DNA of 63,668 nucleotides, the filler included, from an uncultured archaeon (GTDB lineage: Archaea; Nanobdellota; Nanobdellia; Woesearchaeales; CAIVOO01), in the NCBI GenBank assembly GCA_903842985.1. It is 8 parts of 8 records of this genome, joined end to end, with 100 filler letters (N's around TTAATTAATTAA, not from the genome) between each part and the next. Parts side by side here need not be neighbours in the genome. Positions count along the whole stretch, not along the records: positions 1 to 27,866 come from CAIMOB010000014.1; 7 more parts are not named here. The stretch is one strand, 5' to 3'. The stretch's first letter is position 1. Every line of letters starts with the position of its first letter. The translations under genes and the position numbers were made by a program. A model generated the notes under the pieces. The model was not told the DNA's origin and did not search any database. It saw only the letters and a list, made by a program, of their open reading frames with translations. Positions 2,014 through 24,010 of this stretch are shown in pieces.

Positions 2014-2712
2014 CTATAGAACGATTAAAAGCTGTTTTAAGCTGTTTATCCTGCAATCAACATAGCCAAATTTCTTGTTTTTTCTCTTCAATGCCCAGTC
2101 GCCTTTCACAATCCAGACTGTTTTCATGCCAAGCTTCTTTGCCAGCTTCAAATCCACTTCTGGCTTGTCACCAACCATGACACATTCTTCTGGCTTTACT
2201 TTCAGCTTTTTGCAGACAATATTGTAGAATTTCCTGCTTGGCTTGTTCTGCCCTGTGTCATCACTTGTGAGAATTATGTCAAATGAATTGTAGATTCCGA
2301 GTTTTTTCAGCCTTGCTGTTTTTATTTCCCTTGTTCCATCTGAATCAGTGATCATCGCTTTCTTCTGTTTTATTTTTTTCAGGACAGTTTTTGTCTCAGG
2401 ATAAAGCCTTGCATATTTTAATACAGCGCGCCAGTACATCTGCGTCAGCTTCTTTATCTCGCTTTCAGTTATTTTTATCCTGTTTTTTGCAAAATACCTG
2501 AACCACAGATCCCTGTCATAGGATTTTGGATTTTTTCCAATCCCTGCAAGCGTGAAATGATAGTCAATTGCATCAAATTCCTCTGCAAACTTTTCTTTTT
2601 TGACACCATACTTCTTTTCAATGTATTTTCCAACCTCAAGATGCGTCTTTCGCTTTGTTGTCCAGAAATCCTCCAATGTGTCGTCAAAGTCAAATATGAC
2701 GCATCGTATCAT
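2014..2712 (-). CDS. HAD-superfamily hydrolase
   Basis: FDFDDTL motif I, KP motif III, MVGDKPEVD motif IV. Confidence 0.9.
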   Translation of the reverse strand: MIRCVIFDFDDTLEDFWTTKRKTHLEVGKYIEKKYGVKKEKFAEEFDAIDYHFTLAGIGKNPKSYDRDLWFRYFAKNRIKITESEIKKLTQMYWRAVLKYARLYPETKTVLKKIKQKKAMITDSDGTREIKTARLKKLGIYNSFDIILTSDDTGQNKPSRKFYNIVCKKLKVKPEECVMVGDKPEVDLKLAKKLGMKTVWIVKGDWALKRKNKKFGYVDCRINSLKQLLIVL

Positions 2713-2765
2713 TTTAACGAACCTCGTGAGTTAAAATGCCCGCAAATCGCAATTTGTGTCATTTT
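2709..2765 (-). repeat. family-A junction palindromic element, copy A1
   Basis: mRNA sense AAAATGA-CACAAATTGCGATTTGCGGG-CATTTTAACTCACGAGGTTCGTT-AAAATGA; 7-bp direct repeats 50 nt apart. Confidence 0.9.
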
Positions 2766-3367
2766 TTAATCTTTAGAAGCTCTATTTCAAACACCATTGT
2801 TTTTCCTGCAAGCGGGGAGTTCATGTCAATGAAAACAGAATCATTTGTCTTGCTGATAATCCTTAAAATCCCGCTTGTCTTGGATACAAGCTGCATGCCT
2901 ACCTGAAGTTTTGAGACGTTAACGCCCTGCTTTTCAAGGTCGCTGTTCTTCACACCGACAATCTTTTTTGGGTCGTAATTGCCGTAGCCAAGCTCAGGAG
3001 GCACGGTTACTGTCTTTTTTTCACCTTCTTTCATTCCGTAAAGCGCATCCTCAAATCCTTTTATGAATTTGCCTGTGCCGACAGTAAGGTTCAGCGGCGC
3101 ATAACTGCTTTTCTTGAGCCCGCTCTGCTCTGCAATTTCCTTTATGTTTGTGTCAACAACTGTTCCGTTGACTTTTAAGGCATAGTTGACAAGAACAGTG
3201 TCGCCCTGCTTTACTGTTCCCGGCTTTGTTTCAACAAGATAGATTGCAAGCGCAACCACAGCGATTACTATAAAAGCAATAATAAGCCTTCTGTCAAACT
3301 TCAGGACAAACTCTTCCTCTTTCTTCACTTCTTCCTTTGCCTTTTTAGGCGCTTTTTCTTTTTTCAT
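2759..3367 (-). CDS. FKBP-type peptidyl-prolyl isomerase (SlyD-like) with N-terminal membrane anchor
   Basis: GDTVLVNY, IKGFEDAL, PPELGYG, DMNSPLAGK motifs; hydrophobic helix near residues 28-45. Confidence 0.9.
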   Translation of the reverse strand: MKKEKAPKKAKEEVKKEEEFVLKFDRRLIIAFIVIAVVALAIYLVETKPGTVKQGDTVLVNYALKVNGTVVDTNIKEIAEQSGLKKSSYAPLNLTVGTGKFIKGFEDALYGMKEGEKKTVTVPPELGYGNYDPKKIVGVKNSDLEKQGVNVSKLQVGMQLVSKTSGILRIISKTNDSVFIDMNSPLAGKTMVFEIELLKIKK

Positions 3368-3585
3368 TTGTTAAGCAAATCTTCAATCGGCTTCTTTTCC
3401 TTCTTTGTCTTTTCCATTTCTTTTGTCAGGTCAACGCCCAAATCCTGCAGCGCCTTGACATGCATCTGCATCAGCTGCTCTACGATACCCAAAATCTTCA
3501 TCATTTCCTGCCTTTCCTTTGCAAGCGTGCTGAGCGCGCCTTTGTGAAATCCGACTTGTTCGTCCTTGTTCATTTCATCTGCCAT
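3364..3585 (-). CDS. small conserved archaeal hypothetical protein
   Basis: 73-aa ORF with GGTGA SD; ATGA overlap with the FKBP gene. Confidence 0.7.
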   Translation of the reverse strand: MADEMNKDEQVGFHKGALSTLAKERQEMMKILGIVEQLMQMHVKALQDLGVDLTKEMEKTKKEKKPIEDLLNK

Positions 3586-3675
3586 ATTATCACCTTTGTA
3601 ATGTGTTTTAATCCTTATTTTTAAATCTTATGGATGATAGATAAATTTATATACTATCTATATATCCTTTTGCAT

Positions 3676-5793
3676 ATGAAAAAAGGGTTGCTGGTATTTC
3701 TGGCGGTTTTACTTGCTGTTCCTGTCGTGTTTGCTGCAACTTATACTGTTTGTCCTCATCTTAGCTGCGATTATCAAACAATAACTGCTTGCTTCAATGC
3801 CATCAACAACACAGCAGACAATACCTGCAACATTAATGAATCAGGCACTTACACAATCAGCGGGGCTTACACTTACCATTTTACCACACCAACTTGGGGA
3901 CCAATTGACTTATTGACAATTTCTGCAGATAATATTATACTCAATTGCAATGGCGCAACTTTTATAGGACAAGACACGTACGAAAGATTTCACATTACTT
4001 CAGAACCTTCGAGCCGTATTAAAGACGTTACGATTAAAAACTGCAATTTCAGGCATTTCTGGAACCCAATTAATGTTGATGGTGCTGACAACCCAACAAT
4101 AATCAATAACACGTTTGAGTTCTGCGGAAAATTAGGTGATACTAGTAGTGTTGTAACTGTGTGGGGCACTAATGGCGGGATAATAGAAAGCAACACTTTT
4201 CTTAACAACATAATCCCCTCTTTTTGGTTAGCATATGGTACAAACAACACAATCATTAAAAATAATTATATGAATGGCGGGAGTAATGGATTTTCACTTT
4301 CCGATGTTACTTCAAACATACATATTATAAATAATACAATAATCGGGATGAGTGGCAACGGCATTTCCTGCGCGAGCATCACAAACACAAAAGTCACAAT
4401 TATTGATAACACAATAAAGAATACCTATAGTGCCATACAGGTCTTAAATGCCACGGTAATTGGCAATAACATGGATAATTGTTCATTGGGCATTCTCGTT
4501 TCCGGGGCAGATAGTGTCGTTAGTGACAATTATATAACCAATTCAATAGCCCCCTTGGGTATTGGGATATGGCTGATGGGGGGGGTAAATAAGAATAATA
4601 ACATAACAGGCAATACAATCATAAACGCAACAGGTTATGGGTATGGGATTTTCGTATACTCAGATTCACAAGGCAATTTTATTTCTTCAAATATAATTGA
4701 AAGAATGAGTGCAGCTGGTCTTCTTGTTCTAAGTTCAAACAACACAATAACTTCAAACACCTTCAGCTATAACGGTGGTGCTATAGGAATAACTTCTTCA
4801 GGCAATATCCTTTGGGATAACGTGCTTAATTACAACAACAACATTCAATTATATGTGCCAGAAGGCGTCAATGTCACAATCAACTCATTGACAATCGGCT
4901 CTCCTATTGAAAACTACTATGTTTCAAAGGAAAACAACACATTAAACTTGTTTAACAGCAATTCTGCAATCAAATGGAGCAATTCAACTATTGATTTAAC
5001 TGGGAACTACGGATTGAATCTCTACCTTGGCAGCAAATTTGTAAGCCTGAACTCAGCAAATCTGCCAGAGCTGAACACAAAGGCAAATGTCACAATCGCA
5101 GGCATCTCCTGCAGCGAATTCAAATTATGGCACAGTTCTGGTTTTTACAATAGTTTGGCAGATATAATGGCGAACGGTATTATTGTCGCGACGCAGGCGA
5201 ATACTGGAGGAGACTGCACTAATACTACGATTTGCAAGAATGTTCAGTGTTCAGCAAATACTTTGACATTCGAAGCCCAGCACTTTGACGGATTTGGCGG
5301 TGAAGGTACCGGCTCAACCTCAGGCAACGTCTCCATTAATCTAACATCAGAAGTCTCAATCATGGTCAAGTACAACATCGCATACGGGGAAGGCAGGGTA
5401 AATCCTGACAAGCCATCTGCTGTGCTTGATTCTTCATTGACAAACGCAACCAATGGCACATGGACATATGGCCCGCAGTACATGTATGTTGAAAACGACG
5501 GGACAGTAAACATTTCTGTTAATATAACTTCAAGCAAGAACGCGTCCGCTTTCATTGGCGGAACAAATCCTGAATTAAAAGTCAAGGGAATTGTAACAGA
5601 AGCGGATTCATGCAAAGGAACATTCAAGATAACACCTTTTGAAATTTTTACAACATCAGAGAGCATCTGCTCCCTGTTCCAATTCGGAACTTCTTTTGAC
5701 TCATTCAATGTCTCGACAAGGCTTCTGATTCCGTCTGATGCGCCGGTGGGCCACAAGGAAAGCGTGCTGACATTCACTGCAAAGAAAGTTTAA
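3676..5793 (+). CDS. secreted parallel beta-helix (NosD/CASH-like) surface protein, paralogue 1
   Basis: Signal peptide MKKGLLVFLAVLLAVPVVFA (start at 3676 matches the paralogue); I-x-x-N-T-I repeats; many N-x-S/T sequons. Confidence 0.85.
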   Translation: MKKGLLVFLAVLLAVPVVFAATYTVCPHLSCDYQTITACFNAINNTADNTCNINESGTYTISGAYTYHFTTPTWGPIDLLTISADNIILNCNGATFIGQDTYERFHITSEPSSRIKDVTIKNCNFRHFWNPINVDGADNPTIINNTFEFCGKLGDTSSVVTVWGTNGGIIESNTFLNNIIPSFWLAYGTNNTIIKNNYMNGGSNGFSLSDVTSNIHIINNTIIGMSGNGISCASITNTKVTIIDNTIKNTYSAIQVLNATVIGNNMDNCSLGILVSGADSVVSDNYITNSIAPLGIGIWLMGGVNKNNNITGNTIINATGYGYGIFVYSDSQGNFISSNIIERMSAAGLLVLSSNNTITSNTFSYNGGAIGITSSGNILWDNVLNYNNNIQLYVPEGVNVTINSLTIGSPIENYYVSKENNTLNLFNSNSAIKWSNSTIDLTGNYGLNLYLGSKFVSLNSANLPELNTKANVTIAGISCSEFKLWHSSGFYNSLADIMANGIIVATQANTGGDCTNTTICKNVQCSANTLTFEAQHFDGFGGEGTGSTSGNVSINLTSEVSIMVKYNIAYGEGRVNPDKPSAVLDSSLTNATNGTWTYGPQYMYVENDGTVNISVNITSSKNASAFIGGTNPELKVKGIVTEADSCKGTFKITPFEIFTTSESICSLFQFGTSFDSFNVSTRLLIPSDAPVGHKESVLTFTAKKV

Positions 5794-5819
5794 TAAACCC
5801 GTTCTATTTTTATTGCAGC

Positions 5820-6299
5820 ATGAAGATAAAAACAATTGAACAGATAAGGAAAATCGCAGCTGAGTTGAAAAAGCAGGGCAAGAAGATAGTCACGACAAAC
5901 GGCTGCTTTGACGTGCTTCACATAGGGCATATCAGATATTTAAAAGACGCAAAGAAGCTTGGCGATGTTCTGATAATCGGGCTTAACACAGACTCCTCTG
6001 TAAAACAGTACAAGGGCGACAAAAGGCCGCTGATGCCGGAGGACGAAAGAGCTGAGATGCTCTCTGCGCTCGAGTTCGTTGATTACATTGTAAAGTTTTC
6101 TGAGAGGGACCCGAGAAATCTGCTTGACGCGATAAAGCCGGACATCCATGTAAAGGGCGGGGACTACAAAATGGAGCAGATAATTGAAAAGGATGTTGTT
6201 GAGAAGAACGGCGGGAAGGTTGTGCTGCTTCCGCTTGTGCACGGCAAGTCCACTACAAACATAATCAACAGGATTATTGAAGTCTATGGCAACAAATGA
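5820..6299 (+). CDS. rfaE2: RfaE/HldE domain II-like (heptose-1-phosphate) adenylyltransferase
   Basis: TNGCFDVLHIGH, GLNTD, KGGDY, STT motifs. Confidence 0.85.
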   Translation: MKIKTIEQIRKIAAELKKQGKKIVTTNGCFDVLHIGHIRYLKDAKKLGDVLIIGLNTDSSVKQYKGDKRPLMPEDERAEMLSALEFVDYIVKFSERDPRNLLDAIKPDIHVKGGDYKMEQIIEKDVVEKNGGKVVLLPLVHGKSTTNIINRIIEVYGNK

Positions 6300-7149
6300 G
6301 TTTTATATCAAATCAGGAAATCTTGTTTCTGAGAGCGAATGGATAAAGATAATAGAAAGTTTAAGAACAGATGAAGTCATTGAAGACAAGCAGAAAGCAA
6401 AATTTCTGGTTAAGGAAGCTGTTATCGAAGCAGTCAGGAAAAGGACTCCAGATGAAAGATTTGGCATCCTTTTCTCAGGCGGAATTGACTCTTCGTTAAT
6501 TGCGCTAATCTGCAAACAGCTTAAGGCAGATTTTACCTGCTATACTGTTGGATTGGAAAACGCATCTGATGTTGAGCAGGCGAATAAGGTTGCGGAATTC
6601 TTTGATTTCAAATTAAAGACAAGAATTCTAAGCTTGGAAGAGGCTGAAAAAATAATAAAGAAGGCAGTTGAGACTGTCGGGCCGAATGTCGTGAAAGTCG
6701 GAGTGGCTTCTGTTGTGATTGCTGCAAAAGAAATAGCAGACGAGAATATTTTTTTCTCAGGGCTTGGCTCAGAGGAGATTTTTGCAGGCTATGAAAGGCA
6801 TACGAAAGTAAAGGATGTGAATGAGGAGTGCTGGAACGGGCTGAAGCAGATGCGGGAGAGGGACTTGACAAGGGATGTTGCAGTTGCGAAGGAATTTGGG
6901 TTTGAATTGCGAACGCCTTTCCTTGACAAGGAATTGATTAAGCTGGCGATGCAGGTGCCTGGAAAGCTGAAGCTGAACAAAGACAATAAACTGATTCTTA
7001 GGGAAGTTGCAGAAGAGATTGGATTGGGCGATTTTGCCTGGAGAAAAAAGAAAGCAGCGCAGTACGGAAGCAGGTTCGACAAGGCGATTGAGAAGCTTGC
7101 TAAAAGAGAGAAGCTAAGCAAAAGCGAATATTTGAAAACTTTAGTTTAA
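6286..7149 (+). CDS. asparagine synthetase C-terminal (ATP-pyrophosphatase) domain protein
   Basis: SGGIDSS PP-loop, GLGSEEIFAGY, RTPFLD, RKKKAAQYGS; no N-terminal glutaminase domain. Confidence 0.85.
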   Translation: MATNEFYIKSGNLVSESEWIKIIESLRTDEVIEDKQKAKFLVKEAVIEAVRKRTPDERFGILFSGGIDSSLIALICKQLKADFTCYTVGLENASDVEQANKVAEFFDFKLKTRILSLEEAEKIIKKAVETVGPNVVKVGVASVVIAAKEIADENIFFSGLGSEEIFAGYERHTKVKDVNEECWNGLKQMRERDLTRDVAVAKEFGFELRTPFLDKELIKLAMQVPGKLKLNKDNKLILREVAEEIGLGDFAWRKKKAAQYGSRFDKAIEKLAKREKLSKSEYLKTLV

Positions 7150-8232
7150 ATGTATCTCAATTATATCCCTATCTTCCAGAACATGGTCAAGCATGAATCT
7201 CTGCCCCGGGAATTTGGCTGATTTTCCCCAGACGCGTGCGAATCTGAATTTTAAGACAAACTCGCGGTGCACTCTCTCGCAGACATCCCTTATGGTGCAC
7301 CCACCATTCATTATCAGCGGCTCATTTAGGTCAGGCGCCTTGCCTACGCGTTTCATGTAGATGCTGGCAAAGTTCAGCTTCTCAAATATTTTTTCCTTCA
7401 GGAAATCAAGGTTTGTTTTGCTGTCTGCTGAGATTGGGATGCAGTCAAGCTTTTTCGCCAGGTTATTCACTTCTTCTTCTGATATCAAATCTATTTTGTT
7501 TAAGATAATAATCCCGGGGATGTAAAGCCTGTTCCCTTCAACAGCGTCAATTAGCTGGTCCTGCGTAATATCCTCCCTTATCAGCACTTCTGCGTTGTTC
7601 ACCTTCAGCTCCTTGAGCATCGCCTTTATTGTTTCTATATTTGTTTTTGTCAATTTTACAGATGATGCAACCTGCAATCCGCCTTTTGGAAGTTTTTTTA
7701 TCCTTACATCTGGCTTTTTTTCATTAAGCCGCATGTTTGAATCATAAATCTCTTTTTTAATTGCGTCAAGCTGCTTTTCAGGGTTGGGTACGTCAATCAT
7801 TATGAGCAACAAGTCAGCAATCCTTATTGTTGAAAGAACTTCTTTTCCTTTTCCTGTCCCTGCTGCAGCGCCCGCTACAAGTCCGGGGACATCAACGAGC
7901 TGTATCTTTGCGTTCCTGTACTCAATGACACCCGGAATCGCGTCAAGCGTCGTGAAAGCGTATGCAGCAACCTTTGACTTTGCGCTTGTCAGCTGGTTAA
8001 GGAGCGTTGATTTGCCCGTGGAAGGATAGCCCACAAGAATGACAGTTGCGTCGCCGGTCTTCTTCACGCCAAATCCTTTCCCCTTTCCCTTTCCAGAACC
8101 TGCCGTCTCTACCTTTTCCTTCAGCTTTGCAATCTGCGCCTTGATAAGGCCGACGTGATGCTGGGTGCGCTTGTTATAGGAAGTCTTGTTTAACTCTGCT
8201 TCAAGCTCCTGTATTCTCTGCTCTGATGCCAT
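7141..8232 (-). CDS. drg: DRG/OBG-family GTPase with TGS domain
   Basis: GYPSTGKS, YAFTT, DVPG, NKID; likely start MASEQ at 8232. Confidence 0.92.
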   Translation of the reverse strand: MASEQRIQELEAELNKTSYNKRTQHHVGLIKAQIAKLKEKVETAGSGKGKGKGFGVKKTGDATVILVGYPSTGKSTLLNQLTSAKSKVAAYAFTTLDAIPGVIEYRNAKIQLVDVPGLVAGAAAGTGKGKEVLSTIRIADLLLIMIDVPNPEKQLDAIKKEIYDSNMRLNEKKPDVRIKKLPKGGLQVASSVKLTKTNIETIKAMLKELKVNNAEVLIREDITQDQLIDAVEGNRLYIPGIIILNKIDLISEEEVNNLAKKLDCIPISADSKTNLDFLKEKIFEKLNFASIYMKRVGKAPDLNEPLIMNGGCTIRDVCERVHREFVLKFRFARVWGKSAKFPGQRFMLDHVLEDRDIIEIHLN

Positions 8233-8316
8233 TACATTAAATTTTAAATAAGCATATATAAATTTAACTGCATTGAATTTCAAAAATCTTATAAATGAAC
8301 AGATATTCGACAGCCC

Positions 8317-8814
8317 ATGCTCTCGCAAATCGCTGATGTTGCATATGATGTAATGCTTGCTGTAATAACTTTCCTTATCTTCCTCATAGTCGGCAGGTTC
8401 GTGCAGATGATTGTAGTAAGAGTGCTTCAGGAGCTCAACCTTGACTATCTGCTTGAAAAGATTGGCGTTGAATTTTCAGGAAGCAAGATTGTAGGCACAA
8501 TTGCTGCATTTTTCTTCTATTTATGGGGAGTGCTCATTGCGCTGAGCCAGCTCAGACTGGAAAAAATTGCATTTTTTGCAGCGGCAATTGCAGCAGCAGT
8601 CCTAATCCTGCTGTCAATAACCTTGGGGTTCACAGACACAATAAGGAATTTCTTAATCGGAGCCTATTTAAGGAAAAAATACGCAAATAAAAAGGAGCTT
8701 AAAATTGGAAACATAAGCGGCAGGATAATAAGTGTCGGCAGAACCAAGATAAAGATAATGACGAGCAAAAAAGAGATCTTAGAAATACCTTACAAAGCGT
8801 TAAAGCGAGACTGA
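8317..8814 (+). CDS. MscS-like small mechanosensitive-channel family membrane protein
   Basis: Three TM helices followed by NFLIG...G.I...T...IP beta domain. Confidence 0.6.
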   Translation: MLSQIADVAYDVMLAVITFLIFLIVGRFVQMIVVRVLQELNLDYLLEKIGVEFSGSKIVGTIAAFFFYLWGVLIALSQLRLEKIAFFAAAIAAAVLILLSITLGFTDTIRNFLIGAYLRKKYANKKELKIGNISGRIISVGRTKIKIMTSKKEILEIPYKALKRD

Positions 8815-9066
8815 TTCCAGCGTGGAAATCAGGTTGTAAATCTGCGTCCTTGAGAACGGCTGAAGGTTCTTGTCCTCAACAACATCTTCAAGCTTCTGCA
8901 GGATTTTATGGATTCTCATGGAAATGTCAGCATCTTCTTTGAGAACTTCAATCATCTCTTCTATCTTCAGCTTGACATTCTTCGGCACTTCGCTGTCTTC
9001 TGAAAGCTCCTTCAACGCACCCATAACTCCAATAACATTCCCCTGCTCTCTCTGCATTTTAGTCAC
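8800..9066 (-). CDS. UPF0147 family protein
   Basis: DSEVPKNVK...D.NL..FSRTQIYN..S.LES signature. Confidence 0.85.
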   Translation of the reverse strand: MTKMQREQGNVIGVMGALKELSEDSEVPKNVKLKIEEMIEVLKEDADISMRIHKILQKLEDVVEDKNLQPFSRTQIYNLISTLESVSL

Positions 9067-9380: not shown

Positions 9381-9601
9381 TTTATTTCCTTCATCTTTTC
9401 GAATATTGTAAGCATCTGGGTGATTGAGTTAAGCGTTGCCCTAAGCGCCACCGGGTCCTTAGCTTTTACTTTGAATGTGATTTTTCCCTTTGATTTCCTA
9501 ATTGTGTATTCAGAGCGGTCTTTTTTGATGAGTTCTGGCTTGAAGCATTTGTAAATCTTTTCAGCATCGCCGCCGACATCTATCGTTGCATCAAGCTTCA
9601 T
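9377..9601 (-). CDS. pcc1: KEOPS complex subunit Pcc1
   Basis: DRS...AKDPVALRATLNS; likely start MKLDA at 9601, since the upstream TTG extension comes from the repeat element. Confidence 0.88.
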   Translation of the reverse strand: MKLDATIDVGGDAEKIYKCFKPELIKKDRSEYTIRKSKGKITFKVKAKDPVALRATLNSITQMLTIFEKMKEIK

Positions 9602-9649
9602 TTTAACGAACTCGTGAGTTAAAATTTGCAAATCCGCTGATTTGCATTA
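9598..9649 (-). repeat. family-A junction element, copy A2 (rpoP/pcc1)
   Basis: TAATGCAAATCAGCGGATTTGCAAATTTTAACTCACGAGTTCGTTAAAATGA in mRNA sense. Confidence 0.88.
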
Positions 9650-9781
9650 TCTTGCCTTTATCTTTGTTGAAACTGCTCTAGGCTTGTAAAGTATCTTGTT
9701 GCCGCAGTAAGGGCATCTGATTTTCTTTCTTAAGTACTCATCGCTGACCTTTTTATCACAGTAAAAGCATTTGTATTCCAT
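9647..9781 (-). CDS. rpoP: RNA polymerase subunit P (Rpo12), not in the ORF track
   Basis: 44 aa MEYKCFYCDK...IRCPYCGNKILYKPR...KAR zinc ribbon; lies between rpl37ae and pcc1. Confidence 0.92.
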   Translation of the reverse strand: MEYKCFYCDKKVSDEYLRKKIRCPYCGNKILYKPRAVSTKIKAR

Positions 9782-9841
9782 TTTTTACGACCTCCATGAG
9801 TAAAAAATGCCAGCAAATCCATCAGATTTGCGCTGCATTTT
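9779..9841 (-). repeat. family-A junction element, copy A3 (rpl37ae/rpoP)
   Basis: AAAATG-CAGCGCAAATCTGATGGATTTGCTGG-CATTTTTTACTCATGGAGGTCGTAA-AAAATG in mRNA sense. Confidence 0.85.
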
Positions 9842-10139: not shown

Positions 10140-10260
10140 TATGCCCTCCAAAATATAAATCTGAATATCAGGATTAGGGGTTTATATTTAAAAGTTTCTA
10201 TTGTTTCCATATATGCTTAACCCTTAATATTTATAAATACCTTTGATTTTCAGTATACTT

Positions 10261-13057: not shown

Positions 13058-13836
13058 AACCAAAAGCGCACGTATCAGAAAAGAAGAAGAAGCAGACAAA
13101 AGAAATAGAGAAGCTTCTTATGGACTGGCCTGTAATAGCAATAGTAGACATGTCGGGCCTGCCGGGCGCTCAGCTCCAGAAGATAAGAAACAACACAAAG
13201 AATGATTTGAAGATTCTTGTGACAAAGAAGCGCCTGATGAAGCTTGCGATTGAGGCAATAAAAGAAAAGAAAAATAACATTTCTGAAATTGAGCAGTGCC
13301 TTACAGGAATTCCAGCATTGATATTCACAAAGCTAAATCCATTTAAGCTTTACCAGCTTATAATCAAAAATAAGTCATCTGCGTCAATCAAGCCGGGACA
13401 GCTTGCGCCGCATGACCTGATTATTCCTGCAGGGCCGACGCCGTTTACGCCGGGCCCAATGATTGGAGAGCTTACTTCAATGGGGATAAAGTCAGGAGTA
13501 GAAGGCGGGAAAATTGCAATAAAGCAGGATTTCACAGCTGCAAAGGCAGGCGAGCCAGTCAACATGAAAACGGCAAGCCTTCTCATGAAGCTTGGTGTTG
13601 AGCCGATTGAAATCGGGCTGAACCTGACAGCTGTTTATGAAGAAGGGATAATTTTCAAAAAAGATGTTTTGTCAATTGATATTAATTCAATGCTTTCAAA
13701 GGCAATATCCGAGGCAAGGGCATTGGCTTTGGAGCAGGGAATCATAACAAAAGAAATAATAGAGGAAATGATTTCAAGGGCAAATGCCTATGCATTGGCC
13801 TTGAAGACAGAGATTAATACGCAAAAAACTCCTTAG
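13054..13836 (+). CDS. rplP0: 50S ribosomal protein L10 / P0
   Basis: AGPTPFTPGP, LGVEPIEIGL; synteny; stop codon lies inside a family-B hairpin. Confidence 0.95.
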   Translation: MKPKAHVSEKKKKQTKEIEKLLMDWPVIAIVDMSGLPGAQLQKIRNNTKNDLKILVTKKRLMKLAIEAIKEKKNNISEIEQCLTGIPALIFTKLNPFKLYQLIIKNKSSASIKPGQLAPHDLIIPAGPTPFTPGPMIGELTSMGIKSGVEGGKIAIKQDFTAAKAGEPVNMKTASLLMKLGVEPIEIGLNLTAVYEEGIIFKKDVLSIDINSMLSKAISEARALALEQGIITKEIIEEMISRANAYALALKTEINTQKTP

Positions 13837-13871
13837 GAGTTTTTGCGCACAAAAATCCATAAGGATTTTTG
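13820..13871 (+). repeat. family-B double-hairpin element
   Basis: CGCAAAAAACTCC-TTA-GGAGTTTTTGCG followed by CAAAAATCC-ATAA-GGATTTTTG. Confidence 0.8.
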
Positions 13872-14197: not shown

Positions 14198-14258
14198 TCA
14201 GAAATGGGACGCCCATTTCTGAGCACCCTAAAAATCCATAAATGATTTTTATGGATTT
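14198..14258 (+). repeat. double-hairpin element related to family B
   Basis: TCAGAAATGGG-ACG-CCCATTTCTGA, GCAC linker, AAATCCATAAA-TGATT-TTTATGGATTT. Confidence 0.7.
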
Positions 14259-15124: not shown

Positions 15125-15156
15125 AATTTAAATAGTTCTAAATAAATAACTTGTTT

Positions 15157-15570: not shown

Positions 15571-15572
15571 TC

Positions 15573-15788: not shown

Positions 15789-15790
15789 TC

Positions 15791-16270: not shown

Positions 16271-16274
16271 AGAA

Positions 16275-16460
16275 TCACCTTACTTTTATTGCAAACTCCC
16301 CTTCTGTTTTGAATCCTGCCTTCTTTGCTATGAATGACTTTTTTGCGTCCAGGATAGCAACCCTGCCTTTCCAGTTTGCAACCAGGTCAGTGCTCTTGCA
16401 TATTGGGCATTCATTTGCTTCTGTCAGAATCTTGCAGTTCTTGCATGCTCTCTTTTTCAT
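16275..16460 (-). CDS. spt4: transcription elongation factor Spt4 (RpoE'')
   Basis: ACKNC...CPIC...WKG...S.IAKK...G.FAIKVR. Confidence 0.95.
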   Translation of the reverse strand: MKKRACKNCKILTEANECPICKSTDLVANWKGRVAILDAKKSFIAKKAGFKTEGEFAIKVR

Positions 16461-16513
16461 TTTAACGAACCTCGTGAGTTAAAATGCTGCAAATCGCAGA
16501 TTTGCATCATTTT
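16457..16513 (-). repeat. family-A junction element, copy A4 (rpoE1/spt4)
   Basis: AAAATGA-TGCAAATCTGCGATTTGCAG-CATTTTAACTCACGAGGTTCGTT-AAAATGA; 31 contiguous nt identical to A1. Confidence 0.92.
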
Positions 16514-17103: not shown

Positions 17104-17471
17104 TATATCAGCCTCAAATGCTTTTTTCCAACCATAACAATGCGCCTTGCTCCAAGCTTTCTTTTGAGCTCAGCGTCCTGGGTCGCGATTATACAGCCTT
17201 TTAGGCTTATAAGCGATTCGTCAACCCCTATTCCGGCTGGAGTTGGAAGGATTTTTAAACCTTTCCTTTTTAAGAGCTGAAGAGCCAGCTTTGCAGCTGC
17301 CTTATCCTTTCCTTTCTGCTTTTTAACAATGCTTTTAAGTTCATCTATGGTTTTATCCACTACGCAAAGCTGGTATTCGAAGTTGCATATTCTGTCTATT
17401 TCAGTGAAAATATCCAGCTTAAACTGCCCAGGTATGAGCAGGAAGTTCGTGTCCAATACTATCTTTTGCAT
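17103..17471 (-). CDS. PIN-domain nuclease (Fcf1/Utp24-like)
   Basis: VLDTNFL...EL...VD...ATQD.EL. Confidence 0.88.
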   Translation of the reverse strand: MQKIVLDTNFLLIPGQFKLDIFTEIDRICNFEYQLCVVDKTIDELKSIVKKQKGKDKAAAKLALQLLKRKGLKILPTPAGIGVDESLISLKGCIIATQDAELKRKLGARRIVMVGKKHLRLI

Positions 17472-17578
17472 ATCTTAAAAAGAATATATGGAGTTTAAAA
17501 AGGTTTTTGTTATGCAGTTTAGTCTGATTGTAGTGACGAACAGAAGGTTTAAATATTTTATTGCCTGTTTGTTAGGGC

Positions 17579-18046
17579 ATGGTCGAAAAGACAAAGAACC
17601 CTAAAGTTGCCAATTTAGCTTCAGATTTAGAAAAATTAACAAAACATCTTGTAGAGAGAGCAGATGACGCCTGCGATTTTGAAGATGTTCTAAACAAAGC
17701 AATACATTCATTGTTTCTGGCACAGCCAAGCGGCAAAAAGAATTATGAGTGTGATAAACTAAAAATTGGGCGGGTATTTTTGGAGAATGATTCTGTGGTT
17801 GGAGCTGTAAAAATTGAATATAAACCATCAATAAAAATTGGCAATGACATGTATCTTGCTAATGATTCAATTACAATTGGAGCAATAGATATAAGGAAAA
17901 GAACTTATTCACTAGAACAGGATATTAAAAAATATGACAAATCATTTCGCTTGCATCATAATATACCCTTGCATCATAAAATACCTATTGTCTTGAGAGA
18001 CACAGAAATGGTAATGAAAAGCTTAGGATTGACTAGTGAAAGATAA
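17579..18046 (+). CDS. hypothetical protein
   Basis: 155-aa ORF preceded by BRE/TATA-like GAAGGTTTAAATA. Confidence 0.6.
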   Translation: MVEKTKNPKVANLASDLEKLTKHLVERADDACDFEDVLNKAIHSLFLAQPSGKKNYECDKLKIGRVFLENDSVVGAVKIEYKPSIKIGNDMYLANDSITIGAIDIRKRTYSLEQDIKKYDKSFRLHHNIPLHHKIPIVLRDTEMVMKSLGLTSER

Positions 18047-18049
18047 TAC

Positions 18050-18814
18050 TCACAGCGCTTTCTTCATCTTCACAGCATCGCCGAATGGGTCAGGGCTTTC
18101 ATTCACAATATTGATGCTGACATTGTATTTCTTCAGATATTTGAAAAGCTCCTTTATCTCGCTTTCCTTTGTAAGCAGATGCCTTCTTTCGCCTTTCTCT
18201 GTCCACTCAATTCCTGAGAAATGACCTGTTTTGTGCTTTATCTTGTTCACTTTCTGCATCACTTCATCATAGTCTATTTTGCCGTTGTTCCTCGCCTTCA
18301 AATGCGCGAAATCAATGCAGACTGCGCAGCCGGTTTCATTTGAAAGCTTGACTAATTCGTCAATGTCGCCGAACTGGCTTCCCTTGCCTGTTGTCTCAGG
18401 CGCAAGCATGACATCCCATTTGAAGTGCTTCACCATCTTCTGCAGTTTCAGAATTTCATCCTTCACAATCTCATAGCATTCATCTTTTGTTCTTTTGCCG
18501 TAGAATGCCGCGTGAAAAACAACATATTTTGCGCCAAGGTAATGCGCCCGTTCGCAGCTTTCCAGTATTCTTCTTCTGGAAGCAGAAACCTTTGCCTTTT
18601 CAGCTGAGCATAGATTAATGTAATAAGGACCGTGGACGCTCAGCGCAATCCCGAGTTTTTTTGCAAGCTCGCCGACTCTTTTCGCCTCATCAATCCCCAT
18701 TCTGACGCCGTAGGTGAACTCAACCTCCAGGCACCCAAGCCCAAGCTCTTTGCAGTGGCTGACTCCCTCGTAATTGCCCAATCCAGAACTTCCCGCAGAC
18801 CCTACTTTTATCAT
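18050..18814 (-). CDS. nfo: endonuclease IV-like (AP endonuclease family 2)
   Basis: HGPYYINL, VFH, PETTGK, CIDFAH, HFSG, RHL, ESP; possible alternative start MRFVK at 18829 inside the repeat. Confidence 0.9.
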   Translation of the reverse strand: MIKVGSAGSSGLGNYEGVSHCKELGLGCLEVEFTYGVRMGIDEAKRVGELAKKLGIALSVHGPYYINLCSAEKAKVSASRRRILESCERAHYLGAKYVVFHAAFYGKRTKDECYEIVKDEILKLQKMVKHFKWDVMLAPETTGKGSQFGDIDELVKLSNETGCAVCIDFAHLKARNNGKIDYDEVMQKVNKIKHKTGHFSGIEWTEKGERRHLLTKESEIKELFKYLKKYNVSINIVNESPDPFGDAVKMKKAL

Positions 18815-18868
18815 TTTAACGAACCTCATTAATTAAAATGTCCGCAAATCGCAATTTGCGTCATTTTA
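18811..18868 (-). repeat. family-A junction element, copy A5 (antiporter/nfo)
   Basis: TAAAATGA-CGCAAATTGCGATTTGCGGA-CATTTTAATTAATGAGGTTCGT-TAAAATGA; 8-bp direct repeats 50 nt apart. Confidence 0.9.
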
Positions 18869-20026
18869 TTGTTTCCCGGCAAGCTGCTTCGTGAAAATCA
18901 TTGTTACTGAAGAAACAAACAGCGAATAAATCATCGCTATCAGCGCAGTGTCTCTTACAGCTGCAAAATTATCAAGCGCCATTGTTGAAAGAATGAGGAT
19001 GACAGCTGCGACAGCAACGCCTTTCGGCGCATTCAGAGTCATGAAAACAGCTTCCTTGTTGCTGACATCAGCAGTTGCCTTGATTGATATTATCCTGACA
19101 ACACAGACAATCAAGTAAATAACCAATGCATCCAGCATAACTTTCCAGCTCGGCGCGATGTTGACAATCAGGCCAGCCATGATAATTACAAGAATCATGA
19201 GCAGATGCGAGAACACAGCTGAGAATGACATCATTTCTTTCTTTTCCTTTATCTTCACGAGTCCGAAGAATATCCCTGTTGTCGCGACAGCCAGGACAGG
19301 GTTTCCGTTGATATTTTCCGCAAGAACATATGCAAGCAAGGCAGACACCACCAGGATAATCGGCGAGAGCCATTCATAATAATTCTTTTTTGCAATCCTG
19401 AATGTAATTAGGCCTACCAAAACACCTGCGCCAATGCCTATTGCAAGCTGCTGAAGAAGCGGAACAAGCTGGCTTGCAAGATTTTCAGCTGTAAATGCTC
19501 CTGTTGTCTGCTCAATGTTTAGCACAATCAGCGGAATTAACATGACAAGCAGGGTGTTTATGACAGCCTCTGCATTTAAAATGTGCAGCGCCCGATTTTT
19601 CGCCTTGTCAAGCGCAACATCAGCTGCAGTGCCTGCCATCAATGAAGCAAGGATAATTGAATAGAAAAGACCAAGCCCAATAAAATAATAACTTACTGCT
19701 GAGATTATCACTGTTGCAAACAAAAAGAATACAAATGCAAGCTCAAGCGCCCTTTTGTCGAGAGTGTCAAGCTCATTGAGCTTCAGCCTTGATGCAGAAT
19801 CAAAAACAATAATCGCGATTGCGATTACTGAAACTGCTGCAACCATCTCATTCGGGAAGTAGACAAGCGGTTTTCCATTGAAATTAATGCTATTCAGCAG
19901 AATCCCCACCACCAGAAGCAAAAGGATGTTTGGCAGCCTGAATTTTTTTGATACAATTGAGCACAAAATCCCAATAAGCAGAACAACAGCAAGAAAAGTT
20001 AAATATGTTATTGTTGCGCTTACCAT
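18866..20026 (-). CDS. cation:proton antiporter (CPA1, NhaP-like)
   Basis: About 12-13 TM helices; LNAEAVINT, PKGVAVAA motifs. Confidence 0.8.
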   Translation of the reverse strand: MVSATITYLTFLAVVLLIGILCSIVSKKFRLPNILLLLVVGILLNSINFNGKPLVYFPNEMVAAVSVIAIAIIVFDSASRLKLNELDTLDKRALELAFVFFLFATVIISAVSYYFIGLGLFYSIILASLMAGTAADVALDKAKNRALHILNAEAVINTLLVMLIPLIVLNIEQTTGAFTAENLASQLVPLLQQLAIGIGAGVLVGLITFRIAKKNYYEWLSPIILVVSALLAYVLAENINGNPVLAVATTGIFFGLVKIKEKKEMMSFSAVFSHLLMILVIIMAGLIVNIAPSWKVMLDALVIYLIVCVVRIISIKATADVSNKEAVFMTLNAPKGVAVAAVILILSTMALDNFAAVRDTALIAMIYSLFVSSVTMIFTKQLAGKQ

Positions 20027-20120
20027 TTTGCCTCTTTGTATGTGTTTTCTGGAGTTTTATTTATAATATTTTCGACTTTTATACGAAATATTTAAATACA
20101 AACTTCCTTTTTAAGTGTGT

Positions 20121-21353
20121 ATGGATTTAAAACAGGTAGCTGGAAAACTAAAGCCAAACGAGAAGGCAGTTCTGAAGGAAGTTGACTCATTTCTTGCTAA
20201 ATTGAATTCCGGGCTCAAAATGCATAAATTAAATGCAGAAGCAGCCACAGGCGGGTCAATTGCAAAGGGAACCTTCCTCAAAGGCGACCATGATGTTGAT
20301 TTGTTTGTCAAGTTCAGCAGGGAATACCCAAGCGATAAGCTTGCAGACTATCTGGAGAAGGCGCTGGATAAATTCAAGTTCAACAGGGTGCATGGCTCGC
20401 GTGATTATTTCCAGATAAAATCAAAAAATCTTATGTTTGAGATTATACCTGTCTATAATATTTCATTTTCGCATGAAATCGTTAACATAACCGATGCTTC
20501 CCCCCTGCATGTCAAGTGGGTAAAATTCCAGTTCGGAAAAAAGGAGGGGCTCGCTGACCAGATAAGGCTGGCAAAGGCATTCTGCAAGGCGCAGGGAGTT
20601 TACGGCGCAGAGTCATATGTAAAGGGATTTTCAGGGCATGTGCTTGACATACTTGTTATTTACTACGGCGGTTTCATGGAACTTTTGAATAATGCAGTAA
20701 AATGGAACCCGAAGCAGGTCATAGATTTCTACAATACTTACAAAGGAAGAGCAATTGAGATGCTCAATCCGTCAAAAACAGACAGCCCACTGGTTCTTGT
20801 TGATCCAGTCCAGTCAAACAGGAACGCTGCAGCATCGCTGTCAAATGAGAATTTTTATATTTTTATCGAGAAGGCAGAGGAATTCCTGAAAAATCCGTCT
20901 GCAAAATTCTTTGAAAGGAAAAAATTCTCGCTGGCTGAGATAAAGAAAAGGGCAAATGCAAAGCAGCTCATACTCCTAAATGTTCAGGCGCTTGAGGGAA
21001 AGGAAGACATTGTCGGCTCAAAGCTTCTGAAAGCATATTCATACATAAGAAACCAGCTTGTCATAAACAATTTCAAGCTTCATGATTCTGGCTGGAACTG
21101 GGACAAGAAGAAAAAGGCAGTTTTCTGGTACATAACAGACAAGAAAGACATTCCGAAGACATATAACTGGGAGGGTCCGCCTGCAAATTCAAATGATTTT
21201 GTCAAGCTGTTCAAGGCCAAACATAAGATAACATTTGAAAAGGACGGCAGGATTTACGCTGTTGTCGAGCGGAAATTCACAAAAGCAAAGGATTTGATTA
21301 AGAAAGTAATTAGCGACGAATATGTCAGGGAAAAGGTGAATGCCATAAAATGA
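20121..21353 (+). CDS. cca: archaeal class I CCA-adding enzyme
   Basis: GGSIAKGTFL..D.DVDLF, YGAE...GFSG, DPVQSNRNAAA. Confidence 0.93.
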   Translation: MDLKQVAGKLKPNEKAVLKEVDSFLAKLNSGLKMHKLNAEAATGGSIAKGTFLKGDHDVDLFVKFSREYPSDKLADYLEKALDKFKFNRVHGSRDYFQIKSKNLMFEIIPVYNISFSHEIVNITDASPLHVKWVKFQFGKKEGLADQIRLAKAFCKAQGVYGAESYVKGFSGHVLDILVIYYGGFMELLNNAVKWNPKQVIDFYNTYKGRAIEMLNPSKTDSPLVLVDPVQSNRNAAASLSNENFYIFIEKAEEFLKNPSAKFFERKKFSLAEIKKRANAKQLILLNVQALEGKEDIVGSKLLKAYSYIRNQLVINNFKLHDSGWNWDKKKKAVFWYITDKKDIPKTYNWEGPPANSNDFVKLFKAKHKITFEKDGRIYAVVERKFTKAKDLIKKVISDEYVREKVNAIK

Positions 21354-22078
21354 AGGCGCTGATTCTGGCAGCAGGATACGCAACAAGGCTTTATCCGCTC
21401 ACCCTTAATTTTCCAAAGCCGCTTCTAAAAGTCGGCGGAAGGCCGATTGTTGAGCACATAATTGCAAAGATAGCGGGGGCAGGCGCAGATGAAATTTTGA
21501 TAGTTACAAATGACAGGTATTACCCAAGCTTTCTTGAGTGGTCAAGAAGCTACAAGCCGAATGTCCCAGTCAAGATAATAAACGACGGCACCAAGTCGAA
21601 TGAAGACAGGTTGGGAGCTGTCGGGGACATTAATTTTGTGATTACAAATGAGAACATCAAAGAGGATTTGCTGATAATCGCAGGCGACAACCTGTTCGAG
21701 TTTGACATCAGGAATCTGGCTGCGCTGTCAATGAAGAAGAACAGCTCTGCGATAGCTGCCAGGGACATAAATGATCTGGAGGCGGCAAAAAGATTCGGCG
21801 TTCTTGCGCTGGGCAAGAGCAACAAAATTATTGAATTTGCAGAGAAGCCTGCGCAGCCGAAGTCGACGCTTGTGAGCACAGCCTGCTATATCCTTAAAAA
21901 AGAGGATGTCGAGGAGCTGAAAAAATGCTTCAGGGAGATGAAGCCCGACAACCTCGGCGACTTCATAACTTATCTTATAAGCAAGAAGGATGTTTACGCC
22001 TATGTTTTCAGCGAGCAGTGGTTTGACATCGGAAGCCATGAACAGTTAAAGGAGGCAGATATATTCTATTCAAAATGA
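21350..22078 (+). CDS. sugar-phosphate nucleotidyltransferase
   Basis: ILAAGYATRLYPLT...KPLL, EKP, WFDIG. Confidence 0.9.
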   Translation: MKALILAAGYATRLYPLTLNFPKPLLKVGGRPIVEHIIAKIAGAGADEILIVTNDRYYPSFLEWSRSYKPNVPVKIINDGTKSNEDRLGAVGDINFVITNENIKEDLLIIAGDNLFEFDIRNLAALSMKKNSSAIAARDINDLEAAKRFGVLALGKSNKIIEFAEKPAQPKSTLVSTACYILKKEDVEELKKCFREMKPDNLGDFITYLISKKDVYAYVFSEQWFDIGSHEQLKEADIFYSK

Positions 22079-22695
22079 GCCTGATAGAGCAGATAATTGG
22101 TTTGGTAAATTCAGTTGTTCTTGCAATGGGCTATCCTGGGATAATAATTCTCATGTTCCTTGAAAGCACAATGGTTCCAATCCCTTCTGAGGCAATAATG
22201 CCATTTGCAGGGTTTCTTGTTGCGCAGGGAAAATTAAATTTTATTCTTGTTGCCTTGCTTGCAGGCGTTGCTTCGCTTTTGGGAAGCTGGGTTTCTTACG
22301 CAATCGGCTATTACGGGGGAATTCCGCTGGTTAGGAAAGCAGGGCATTATGTTCTTTTGGATGAAGACAGGCTCAAATGGACAGAGAAATGGTTCAAAAG
22401 GCATGGGGCAAAGACAATATTTTTCTCAAGATTCATCCCTGTCGTGAGGCATTTGATTTCTTTGCCCGCAGGAATAGGCAAAATGAACCTGTTCAAGTTC
22501 TCAGTCTATACTTTTTCGGGCGCATTTATATGGGGCACGGTACTTTTGTATCTTGGATTTTACCTTGGCTCGAATTACATTTTAATCCACAAATACTCAA
22601 GCATTATTGACTGGATTGTTCTGGGGTTAATTGTTATTGCAGTAATCTATTATGTCTGGCATGTTGTCAAGCTAATGAAGACGAAGAAGAAATAA
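22075..22695 (+). CDS. dedA: DedA family membrane protein
   Basis: LES..PIPSE, RFIPVVRH..S.PAG. Confidence 0.92.
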   Translation: MSLIEQIIGLVNSVVLAMGYPGIIILMFLESTMVPIPSEAIMPFAGFLVAQGKLNFILVALLAGVASLLGSWVSYAIGYYGGIPLVRKAGHYVLLDEDRLKWTEKWFKRHGAKTIFFSRFIPVVRHLISLPAGIGKMNLFKFSVYTFSGAFIWGTVLLYLGFYLGSNYILIHKYSSIIDWIVLGLIVIAVIYYVWHVVKLMKTKKK

Positions 22696-22731
22696 GTGAA
22701 ACAATTATTTCTGAGGATTTTTATTAAATAA

Positions 22732-23901
22732 TCACTTCGCAAACCCAATCAGCAGATTTGCTACAATCACAATAAGCATTATCATTGAAATTGCTTTGAA
22801 ATACTTGTCGCCTTTCTTCTTTAAAATCTTCCTGAAAACAAGCTGGAGCATCCTTCCGCCGTCAATTGGGCCGACAGGAACTAAATTGAAAATTCCGATG
22901 CCCAGATTCAGCAGATAGAGCCAGTAGAGCAATCCGATAATCCAGATGGCAGCACTTGGAATAAATGTCCCTATTTTCTTGACAAGATTTTTATTGAACT
23001 CTGCCTTCTGTGACAGCGAAACACCCAGATAGCTCTGGTTGTTTTTCGGATTCTTTCCGAGCGCAATCTCATAATCCTTTTTGTCTGTTTTCAGCAGTAT
23101 TTTGTCGCCTGCTGACTTGTTTGACATTAAATTGATAAAATCCTCTGTGTAGGTCACATTTTTCCCGTCAACTCCAGTTATTGTTTCGTTTATCGAAACT
23201 CCGGCGTTGAACGCAGGGCTTGCGTTTGTCACATCCAGTACCTGCACTCCCTGGAAGTCGTAGATTCTCTCAACAATCGGCGGTGCAGCAAGTAAAAATA
23301 TCCCCAGTATTATCCCTCCTAAAATAAGGTTTGAGAAAGGGCCTGCCGCGAAAACAGCAAGCTGCTGCCTGCATGACTTTGTTTTCAGCTTTTTCTCGTC
23401 AGGCTCGACAAAGGCAGCAGGAATCACCGGAAGAAGTATTGCGAGAAACGCGAATCCGCTTGATTTGATTTTCAGCCCGATTTTTCTTGCGACAATGCCA
23501 TGCGAAAATTCGTGGACAGTTGCTATAACCAATATTGAGATTATCCAGTAGAAGAACGGCACAAAGAAAGTGCCCTTCACCTTTATGGGAAGGACAAGAC
23601 CGACTGCAGGCATTGCTGAAGGAGTTATTATCGCCTTGTATAAATTTGAGCATAGAAGAAACGAGATGGCAGCCATGCCTATGAACCCGACTATTATCCC
23701 AGCATAGCTCACATACTCTATTGTTTTCCTGTACTTGAGCGCAATCTTCTCCATTAAGCCTATGCCAATTTTTGTCTTGTAAAGTATGAAATAAAAAAGA
23801 GGAAATATTATTTTCTGTATTTCAACATTTTTCCTTTTGACAATAAGGAAAACACTCATTAGAAGAATAAAAACAATAAGTGCAATCAGCTCAGTGCTCA
23901 T
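22732..23901 (-). CDS. site-2 protease (M50) with PDZ domain
   Basis: HEFSH, AAGP, NLVP.GPIDGG. Confidence 0.92.
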   Translation of the reverse strand: MSTELIALIVFILLMSVFLIVKRKNVEIQKIIFPLFYFILYKTKIGIGLMEKIALKYRKTIEYVSYAGIIVGFIGMAAISFLLCSNLYKAIITPSAMPAVGLVLPIKVKGTFFVPFFYWIISILVIATVHEFSHGIVARKIGLKIKSSGFAFLAILLPVIPAAFVEPDEKKLKTKSCRQQLAVFAAGPFSNLILGGIILGIFLLAAPPIVERIYDFQGVQVLDVTNASPAFNAGVSINETITGVDGKNVTYTEDFINLMSNKSAGDKILLKTDKKDYEIALGKNPKNNQSYLGVSLSQKAEFNKNLVKKIGTFIPSAAIWIIGLLYWLYLLNLGIGIFNLVPVGPIDGGRMLQLVFRKILKKKGDKYFKAISMIMLIVIVANLLIGFAK

Positions 23902-24010
23902 TTTAACGAACCTCGTGAGTTAACAAAAAAAATCCCTTCAGGATTTTTGAGTGCAAAAAATCCTTTTGGATTTTTTTGCAAATGCTGCAAATCACAATTT
24001 GCATCATTTT
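23898..24010 (-). repeat. family-A element A6 (rpl40e/S2P) with a nested family-B element at 23924-23979
   Basis: AAAATGA direct repeats 106 nt apart (50+56); the 56-bp double hairpin interrupts the CATTTTAAC segment. Confidence 0.88.

Follow-up and report, generated by a model that had tools for sequence, protein, structure and literature searches.

How the same palindromic element of about 50 bp came to fill the space between the stop codon of one gene and the start codon of the next, over and over along one genome, is the question raised by the DNA analyzed here, a joined stretch of 63,668 nucleotides (hereafter, the window; coordinates count along the whole joined stretch) from an uncultured archaeon of the order Woesearchaeales (GCA_903842985.1; an 879-kb assembly, 92.65% complete, hereafter G000). 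An earlier reading based on the sequence alone had described six copies of this element (A1–A6), and re-reading of the sequence confirmed all six, each occupying a gene junction at the position given below and all lying on the minus strand (the strand of the mRNA). The element is almost certainly mobile and inserts precisely, with duplication of its target, and its core is shared by relatives that lie in quite different targets, including the loops of tRNA genes. The sequence-only reading had called it a non-autonomous, mobile element of REP/MITE-like type (repetitive extragenic palindromic; miniature inverted-repeat transposable element); mobility, dependence on other functions and target duplication are borne out by empty alleles in two relatives, and the likeness to REPs and MITEs fails on the features discussed below.

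The first comparison was made with a genome of the same genus (G001), of which 676 kb were read, about 11 kb of its listed contigs lying outside the comparison. Orthologues were found for 13 of the 22 element sites of G000; eight of these are empty and carry a single target and five are filled, and for the other nine sites no orthologue was found in the 676 kb. The converse was also observed, as G001 carries a full copy at the eIF5A/rpl40e junction and a partial copy at another junction, both of which are empty in G000. The second comparison used contigs of a relative from a sequencing run (X5), aligned at 80% likeness. Within the window, A4 is empty in G001 (50 nt shorter) and present beside rpoE1 in X5; A6 is empty in G001 (106 nt shorter); 49 nt are skipped at A2 in two X5 contigs and 56 nt at A3 in one; and A5 is filled in G001, with 50 nt skipped in one X5 contig in which the intervening letters are not known. 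The sequence-only reading had singled out the rpoE1/spt4 and rpoP/pcc1 junctions for such a comparison, and both yielded the predicted difference (A4 empty in G001, A2 skipped in X5); it had also reasoned that a fixed regulator would show no empty alleles in relatives, and empty alleles were found for five of the six copies. For A1, no orthologue was found in G001 and no joint at that place in the X5 contigs. The empty state is likely to be ancestral, because the core matches of G003 and G006 (98–99% complete, related at the family level) lie at other places and G005 has none; G002 and G004 have one core pattern match each. The element, which is apparently unpublished, has lately been active in the genus of G000.

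The genome was scanned with nhmmer profiles and patterns in place of a covariance model. A profile built from five copies identified 19 full copies in G000, two of which are composites with extra hairpins, and three further copies have the same core hairpin and other flanks, giving a total of 22. One of the three odd copies precedes rps28e, another lies ahead of the 5′ end of a tRNA gene, and the third follows the 3′ end of a tRNA-Arg gene. The pattern for the full element matches 16 times in G000 and not once in each of 20 shuffles, and the copies are not due to chance; none of the 22 lies wholly within a called protein gene. More intergenic hairpins of the same classes are present at G000:C46:8440-8520, C40:2664 and C58:24092, and at G000:C27:13375-13621 (L329) an element lies between a short open reading frame (ORF) and an 11-codon ORF; both ORFs are kept in G001 at approximately 93%, and the upstream one has no Pfam match.

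The anatomy of the element can be followed in A4 (16457–16513, minus strand), which lies between rpoE1 and spt4 and has AAAATG repeats 50 nt apart. In the order of the mRNA, it consists of a left AAAATGA with the stop codon within it (16513–16507), the core hairpin (16506–16488), the hexamer CATTTT (16486–16481), a second hairpin of the form AAC-TC-AC-GAG-GT-TC-GTT (extending to 16458, with GAGGT at 16473–16469) and a right AAAATGA with the start codon within it (16463–16457). CATTTT repeats the target in inverted form and is able to pair with either AAAATG; this feature, the Shine-Dalgarno (SD) sequence in the loop of the second hairpin and a seventh copy in the window had escaped the sequence-only reading. 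In the three odd copies of G000, the duplicated and inverted segments correspond to the local target and not to AAAATG, from which the general layout can be read as target, core hairpin, inverted target copy, optional second hairpin and target. When a single unit is treated as a circle, RNA and DNA parameters both predict, for four copies, a closed and nearly all-paired rod, the middle of which is formed by the target and the inverted target.

This layout was tested on 55 non-redundant copies with the ancestral core (dereplicated from 74 rows, with copies near locus ends or Ns dropped) against 1000 shuffled flank pairings. An exact duplication of at least 5 nt is present in 38 of the 55 copies (shuffled mean 11.1, maximum 20), and an inverted copy matching at 6/8 positions or more in 34 (shuffled mean 5.5, maximum 13). 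Across the order, the core is constant and the duplication and the inverted copy vary by site. The duplication ranges from about 4 to at least 46 nt, and is about 6–9 nt in G000 as judged by empty-allele comparison. GG directly precedes the core in 46 of the 55 copies, its last G being partly imposed by the search patterns. The second hairpin is built on a TC..TC frame with covarying inner pairs (AC/GT, GC/GC, CC/GG, GT/AC and AG/CT); it is these pair changes, and not the count of 33/42 copies with the frame, that constitute the evidence, since the count came from a script favoring TC rows. On the non-mRNA strand, the frame reads GA..GA, which is a stable tandem mismatch in DNA hairpins.

The remaining copies of the window, all on the minus strand, are variations on this plan. 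A1 (2709–2765), between the genes for an FKBP-type peptidyl-prolyl isomerase and a HAD hydrolase, has a derived, GAC-type core and AAAATGA repeats 50 nt apart; A2 (9598–9653), between rpoP and pcc1, has a decayed left repeat; A3 (9779–9841), between rpl37ae and rpoP, has an ancestral, CAGC-type core and AAAATG repeats 57 nt apart; A5 (18811–18867), between the genes for an Na+/H+ antiporter and an AP-endonuclease-2-fold protein, has AAAATG repeats 50 nt apart; and A6 (23898–24010), between rpl40e and an M50 protease gene, is a composite with two extra AAAAATC..GATTTTT hairpins and repeats 106 nt apart. The 50-nt spacing earlier reported for A1, A4 and A5 and the GAGGT located 8 nt before the ATG in five of six copies (GGAGGT in A3; GAGTT in A2) were both confirmed, and the six junctions that had been listed as empty are indeed ordinary ATGA or TAAAATG junctions. 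By a crude gene call, G000 has 113 four-nucleotide overlaps of this kind. The seventh copy (approximately 52010–52072, minus strand, contig C22) is core-only; it duplicates 13 nt including the 3′ end of the tRNA-Arg(TCT) gene (51946–52022, plus strand) and bears an imperfect inverted copy of this 3′-end target, and it is also present in G001.

The window itself is composed of the end of contig C14 followed by C20, C21, C22, C25, C26, C30 and C44, so that everything beyond 27866 belongs to seven other contigs, and the seven N44-TTAATTAATTAA-N44 linkers between 27867 and 61734 are artificial joins. Two long inverted repeats were noted, one of 483 nt (88%; 5312–5794 vs. 34143–34625) and one of 69 nt (83%; 3676–3744 vs. 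36334–36402), both of which overlap a gene of 719 aa at 3634–5793; they are probably paralogous genes on different contigs. An X5 contig has eight extra bases near the pcc1/prefoldin junction (window position 9386).

Beyond this genome, the exact ancestral core was found in 35 GTDB loci, of which 21 are titled Woesearchaeota, Nanoarchaeota or Nanobdellota, 4 are unnamed archaea, 9 are uncultured Methanosarcinales and 1 is Verrucomicrobia, as well as in 28 metagenome loci; none was found in IMG/VR viral contigs. Within the order, a shorter core pattern occurs in 37 of 301 genomes, against 8 for a reversed control (counted from the control table), and the wider AAATC..GATTT hairpin class has a match in 255 of 301 genomes, with up to 52 per genome and 0–7 in controls. 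These order-wide tallies include eight unpublished genomes (G117, G126, G137, G188, G210, G212, G214 and G249), on which no other claim rests. Insertions were seen at SD sites (GGAG/G), in the opening codons of genes, with exact duplications of up to 46 nt, at the 5′ and 3′ ends of tRNA genes, the 3′-end copies being antisense to the tRNA, and in the anticodon, T- and D-loops of tRNA genes. A reverse transcriptase (RT) gene is a target as well, as two such genes (L241, L259) carry an in-frame insert of 48 nt at the same Lys/Gly-Met-Pro-Leu-Gly-Asn site and their frames stay open. Tandem arrays with a period of 49–50 nt are present at L048 and L054, and in L044, L234 and L263 the same junctions again hold similar copies.

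Several related arrangements were observed in addition. Branched, MITE-like elements of approximately 150–250 nt bear the same core at L022, L034, L042, L045, L047, L053, L224 and L225, and their outer inverted ends vary with the target. At L037 and L250, in a gene that we take from its sequence to be GAPDH-like, most differences between the duplicated gene starts fall on third codon positions, and it is the right-hand copy that the inverted copy follows. In six loci (L021, L031, L040, L264, L269 and L272), copies occupy a non-coding site that is conserved, and the long duplication there has diverged; this target may correspond to an rRNA 3′ end, which it resembles.

The sequence-only reading had held that the element targets translational-coupling sites. 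This does not hold as such, because insertions of the family follow a G, in most cases GG, and are found within genes, in tRNA loops and at tRNA ends as well as at SD sites; given these varied targets, the AAAATG(A) form with an SD loop is a genus-level subfamily. Copies with the derived core lie at ATG-A in 13 of 15 cases, compared with 107 of 196 AAAATG starts (p=0.01), so that AAAATGA is the preferred target of the derived core, and after insertion at an ATGA overlap the stop codon belongs to the left copy and the start codon to the right one. As a raw count, 11 of 20 ATG-type copies have a ribosomal-protein or transcription gene as a neighbor. It had further been suggested that the element stays harmless by supplying its own ribosome-binding site. 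The SD part of this idea is partly upheld, the 3′ end of the 16S rRNA being GATCACCTCC and an SD-like loop being present in 18 of 20 ATG-type second hairpins vs. 1 of 13 others (counts that are not independent, as the ATG-type copies are kin and three of the 13 others are tandem copies), and the harmlessness is unsupported; the new ATG is predicted to be paired with a probability of 0.09–0.97 across 18 copies. A spacer of 45–58 nt should abolish coupling by termination and reinitiation, and the SD is probably needed by the downstream gene, because a spacing of about 20 nt is already reported to abolish coupling (PMC10666635). A target may have been the source of the SD, since the empty eIF5A/rpl40e junction of G000 (24160–24180, minus strand), which is filled by the element in G001, has a native GAGGT followed by AAAAATG.

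For twelve copies of the family within tRNA genes, removal was tested in silico and gives a called tRNA in eight cases, the eighth only at a lowered threshold. Splice junctions were taken as the best score among filtered candidates, which is a fit and represents predicted splicing only. In tRNA-His (L275), the candidate intron begins at the first base of the core, and the imperfect inverted target copy forms a central helix of 4/4 pairs; in tRNA-Gln (L235) and tRNA-Asn (L236), this helix is likewise 4/4 and is formed by the duplicated T-loop bases; it is 4/4 at hand-set junctions in tRNA-Pro and 2–3/4 in the Met and Val tRNAs. L251 and L271 gave no resolved tRNA splicing, and L008 and L011 no clean tRNA call by ARAGORN. 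At the mRNA-junction copies of the window, no exon–exon helix was seen by eye. The splicing endonuclease gene EndA was found in all five genomes checked; G000:C33:11318-11572 (L246) matches the EndA catalytic domain with one internal TAA stop, and is either a split or broken EndA gene or a match that overruns the gene end. How introns arrive in archaeal tRNA genes is called open in a review of 2014 (PMC4090602) and again in a preprint of 2026 (10.64898/2026.10.13.758758), and relatives of the element inside tRNA genes point to one way in which archaeal introns arise.

The element was compared with known systems as these are described in the papers cited here. With REP, BIME and REPIN sequences and their TnpA-REP (RAYT) proteins (PMC3733652, PMC3116915, PMC8266576), it shares short imperfect hairpins in many copies, a location mostly between co-directional genes, modular clusters (here A6 and C51), occasional in-frame copies and a proposed single-strand mobilization in trans. 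An imperfect palindrome of 20–40 nt that is multicopy and extragenic is present (a bulged hairpin of about 25 nt, 22 copies), whereas the GTAG/CGTC 5′ tag of REPs is lacking, there being no GTAG and a CGTC solely within one arm of the derived core, and no tnpA-REP gene flanked by the repeats was seen in the loci examined (incomplete assemblies). The element differs from REPs further in being archaeal and in having a site-specific inverted target copy and a target duplication of variable length. With prokaryotic MITEs (PMC10969869), it has in common a non-coding sequence below 500 bp, flanking direct repeats, an intergenic location, stem-loops and a target-site duplication (about 6–9 nt in G000, up to 46 nt exact elsewhere). 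It departs from them in that its inverted segment is internal and target-dependent instead of forming fixed terminal inverted repeats, its duplication length is not fixed and it takes one orientation before the ATG; no autonomous parent sharing its ends was found, DDE transposase families not having been searched. IS200/IS605 insertion sequences (IS), with IS608 as the model (PMC8266576, PMC6006769), resemble it in having a bulged hairpin as the likely recognition site, strand asymmetry, a possible circular single-stranded intermediate and target choice by base pairing, and differ in that the element duplicates its target and its sequence is absent from the termini of the IS200-type element examined in Woesearchaeota. 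The transposed bulge-helix-bulge tRNA introns of Thermoproteales, whose transposition mechanism is called unknown in a review (Fujishima 2010, as summarized in PMC4090602), contrast with an element that lies mostly outside tRNA genes with duplications and so gives a visible donor at the DNA level. Rickettsia palindromic elements (in PMC3733652), compared by description and not by sequence, share in-frame insertion into protein genes; they differ in host and layout, and in-frame copies are a minority here.

Two further candidates were set aside: an integron attC site, because AAC/GTT is present in the common subtype but not retained in others and no integrase was found, and a K-turn, as the GA..GA frame lies on the non-mRNA strand. 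The earlier remark that the element was not recognized as a described archaeal one agrees with the searches made, as a covariance scan with Rfam 15 of window positions 1–27000 gave no real match (a single chance match, with an E-value of 0.69, lay outside the copies) and no published description was found in the literature, where the MITE catalogue of PMC11602168 or the supplements of PMC6006769 could hold the family. The layout fits none of the REP, MITE and IS200 definitions tested, and the element is a new variant among non-autonomous palindromic repeats, with an unusual layout.

In agreement with the earlier remark that no transposase is visible in the window, Y1_Tnp, GIY-YIG and tyrosine recombinase/Phage_integrase genes were not found in the incomplete G000 assembly, DDE families again lying outside the search, and a HUH-motif scan accompanying the crude gene call gave no match. 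Elsewhere, GIY-YIG genes are present in 3 of 13 selected genomes and are not flanked by the core; RT genes are present in 2 of 13 checked carriers vs. 72 of 301 genomes in the order (p=0.74); and the core flanks none of four Y1 loci of carriers and none of 19 other Y1 loci (incomplete assemblies). The IS200-type TnpA family (NF033573) occurs in 18 of 301 genomes, G000 not being among them. Sister hairpins were found 13 times in 16.0 kb of IS200-type tnpA genes and three times in 67.7 kb of flank; the hairpin-bearing tnpA genes amount to 5 of 29 loci in four genomes, with hairpins at several separate gene positions, and the extra hairpins of A6 and C51 are built of similar modules and linkers. 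The window contains a pair of such hairpins at 13820–13871, one of them AAAAATC..GATTTTT, ahead of the SD of an rpl12-like gene, where an X5 contig skips 55 nt, and a doublet of the type found inside IS200-type tnpA genes at 14198–14251, also present in G001. In 14 copies of the candidate IS200-type element, the core is absent from the ends. REP insertion into cognate tnpA genes is reported for one bacterial subclass (PMC6006769), and strand-transfer chemistry and guide-directed retargeting are described for HUH enzymes (PMC8266576). The IS200-type TnpA family is tentatively proposed as the mover, a suggestion that we regard as doubtful.

The IS200-type tnpA element has a left end conserved over about 170 nt and a right end that diverges directly after the stop codon. 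In six genomes (L276, L277, L278, L279, L280 and L281), its tnpA lies one gene away from an RT like that of diversity-generating retroelements (DGRs), and it is a possible vehicle for DGR spread. G000 itself has, at G000:C54:26940-29278 (L214), an RT gene preceded by a template-like repeat that abounds in AAC codons and accompanied by a variable region that matches it; from our own reading of the upstream repeat, this RT is presumably DGR-like.

That the element moves as a folded single-stranded DNA with an enzyme acting in trans is a reading about which belief and doubt are evenly divided. The enzyme, for which an IS200-type HUH transposase is the leading candidate, would recognize the AAATC-loop-GATTT hairpin and join the 5′ end of the core to a target strand ending in G. 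A donor tail that matches the target would then anneal and give a short duplication, and the AAAATG(A) subfamily would represent this case, landing on Lys-codon/ATGA overlaps; with a non-matching tail, the free end would fold back and copy the target, and the element would thereby acquire a fresh inverted copy, a longer duplication and a different target preference. Selection would keep the copies that spare genes, namely those with an SD loop before an ATG, in frame within genes or spliceable in tRNA loops. This reading is proposed because of the empty alleles, the site-specific duplication and inverted copy, the tandem arrays, the rod fold, the covarying second hairpin, the antisense tRNA 3′-end copies and the sister hairpins in tnpA. 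The full picture, a self-retargeting single-stranded dumbbell of about 50 nt that is moved by an IS200-type HUH transposase, uses the inverted target as a new guide, acts as a source of tRNA introns and has an ATGA-specialist lineage, is conceivable and, taken whole, rather unlikely to be right in every part.

Several observations weigh against this single-strand reading. Insertion of IS200/IS605 elements makes no target duplication; no Y1 transposase was found in G000, G001, G003 or G006, and Y1 genes occur in 3 of 13 checked carriers vs. 103 of 301 genomes in the order (p=0.55). Within the tnpA genes, sister hairpins were found and not the core of the element, and a dispensable IS gene may simply be a neutral landing pad, as opposed to a sign of cis-preference; tnpA is weakly associated with a high load of hairpins (6 of 18 vs. 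33 of 283, p=0.018, with the threshold picked after the data were seen and kin included). No circle or intermediate was observed, and the inverted copies are imperfect, which is not expected of fresh copying. G001 and X5 show a crosswise pattern, each having one of A4 and A5 filled and the other empty, indicating that loss, recurrence or recombination also happens, and some empty alleles may be precise losses by slippage. Losses of this kind, together with the tandem arrays, would follow from an enzyme-free origin in replication, in which a stalled nascent strand ending in AAAATG(A) would jump by microhomology to another copy of the element, copy it and return, with hairpin fold-back correcting the inverted copy. 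Such template switching accords with the observation that none of the mobilizer genes searched for tracks the element, with the variable duplication length (about 4 to at least 46 nt), the identity of the direct terminal repeats with the target and the crosswise state of A4 and A5. We nevertheless consider it unlikely, as it does not account for a core whose sequence and bulge geometry stay constant through many families of the order, for the favored GG at the left junction (46/55, with the last G partly pattern-fixed) or for eight gains relative to one sister genome.

An RNA route, by which the unit, as a small archaeal intron that EndA excises and that is then ligated into a circle, would be reverse-spliced or reverse-transcribed and recombined into highly transcribed loci, draws on the presence of the core in tRNA anticodon-, T- and D-loop inserts (8/12 restored on removal), on EndA in all five genomes, on the 11 of 20 ATG-type copies beside ribosomal-protein or transcription genes, and on the DGR-type RT of G000 and the two RT genes elsewhere with an in-frame element. 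It is nonetheless improbable: RT genes are found in just 2 of the 13 carriers, the tRNA 3′-end copies are antisense, the mRNA-junction copies need no splicing and lack exon–exon pairing by eye, the TC..TC frame favors the non-transcribed strand, and reverse splicing yields no target duplication. A fixed or domesticated cis-regulator, acting as a two-state RNA switch in which CAUUUU pairs either with the upstream stop region or with the downstream start codon and tunes the downstream gene, is very improbable. Both pairings are predicted, the ATG is predicted to be paired to widely differing degrees (0.09–0.97), the SD lies in a loop, five sites are common to G001 and copies recur at the same junctions in L044, L234 and L263; set against this, 8 of 13 sites are empty in a genome of the same genus and three more in another relative, and the same core lies in tRNA genes and coding frames. 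The empty alleles refute regulation as the origin, and a regulatory side effect at old sites is possible.

The layout of target, hairpin, inverted target, hairpin and target hints at how so small an element could retarget itself, and IS200-type TnpA, as a named candidate enzyme family, is open to a direct biochemical test. The AAAATG(A) subfamily is a natural experiment, in which coupling would be broken within ribosomal-protein and RNA-polymerase operons and replaced by predicted SD-led initiation. As members of a single sequence family are found both as recent insertions, flanked by duplications and with known empty alleles, and as putative tRNA introns, the donor and the route of such introns become testable; if the proposed mechanism is true, the duplicated or inverted target bases would themselves supply the splice helix in tRNA loops.

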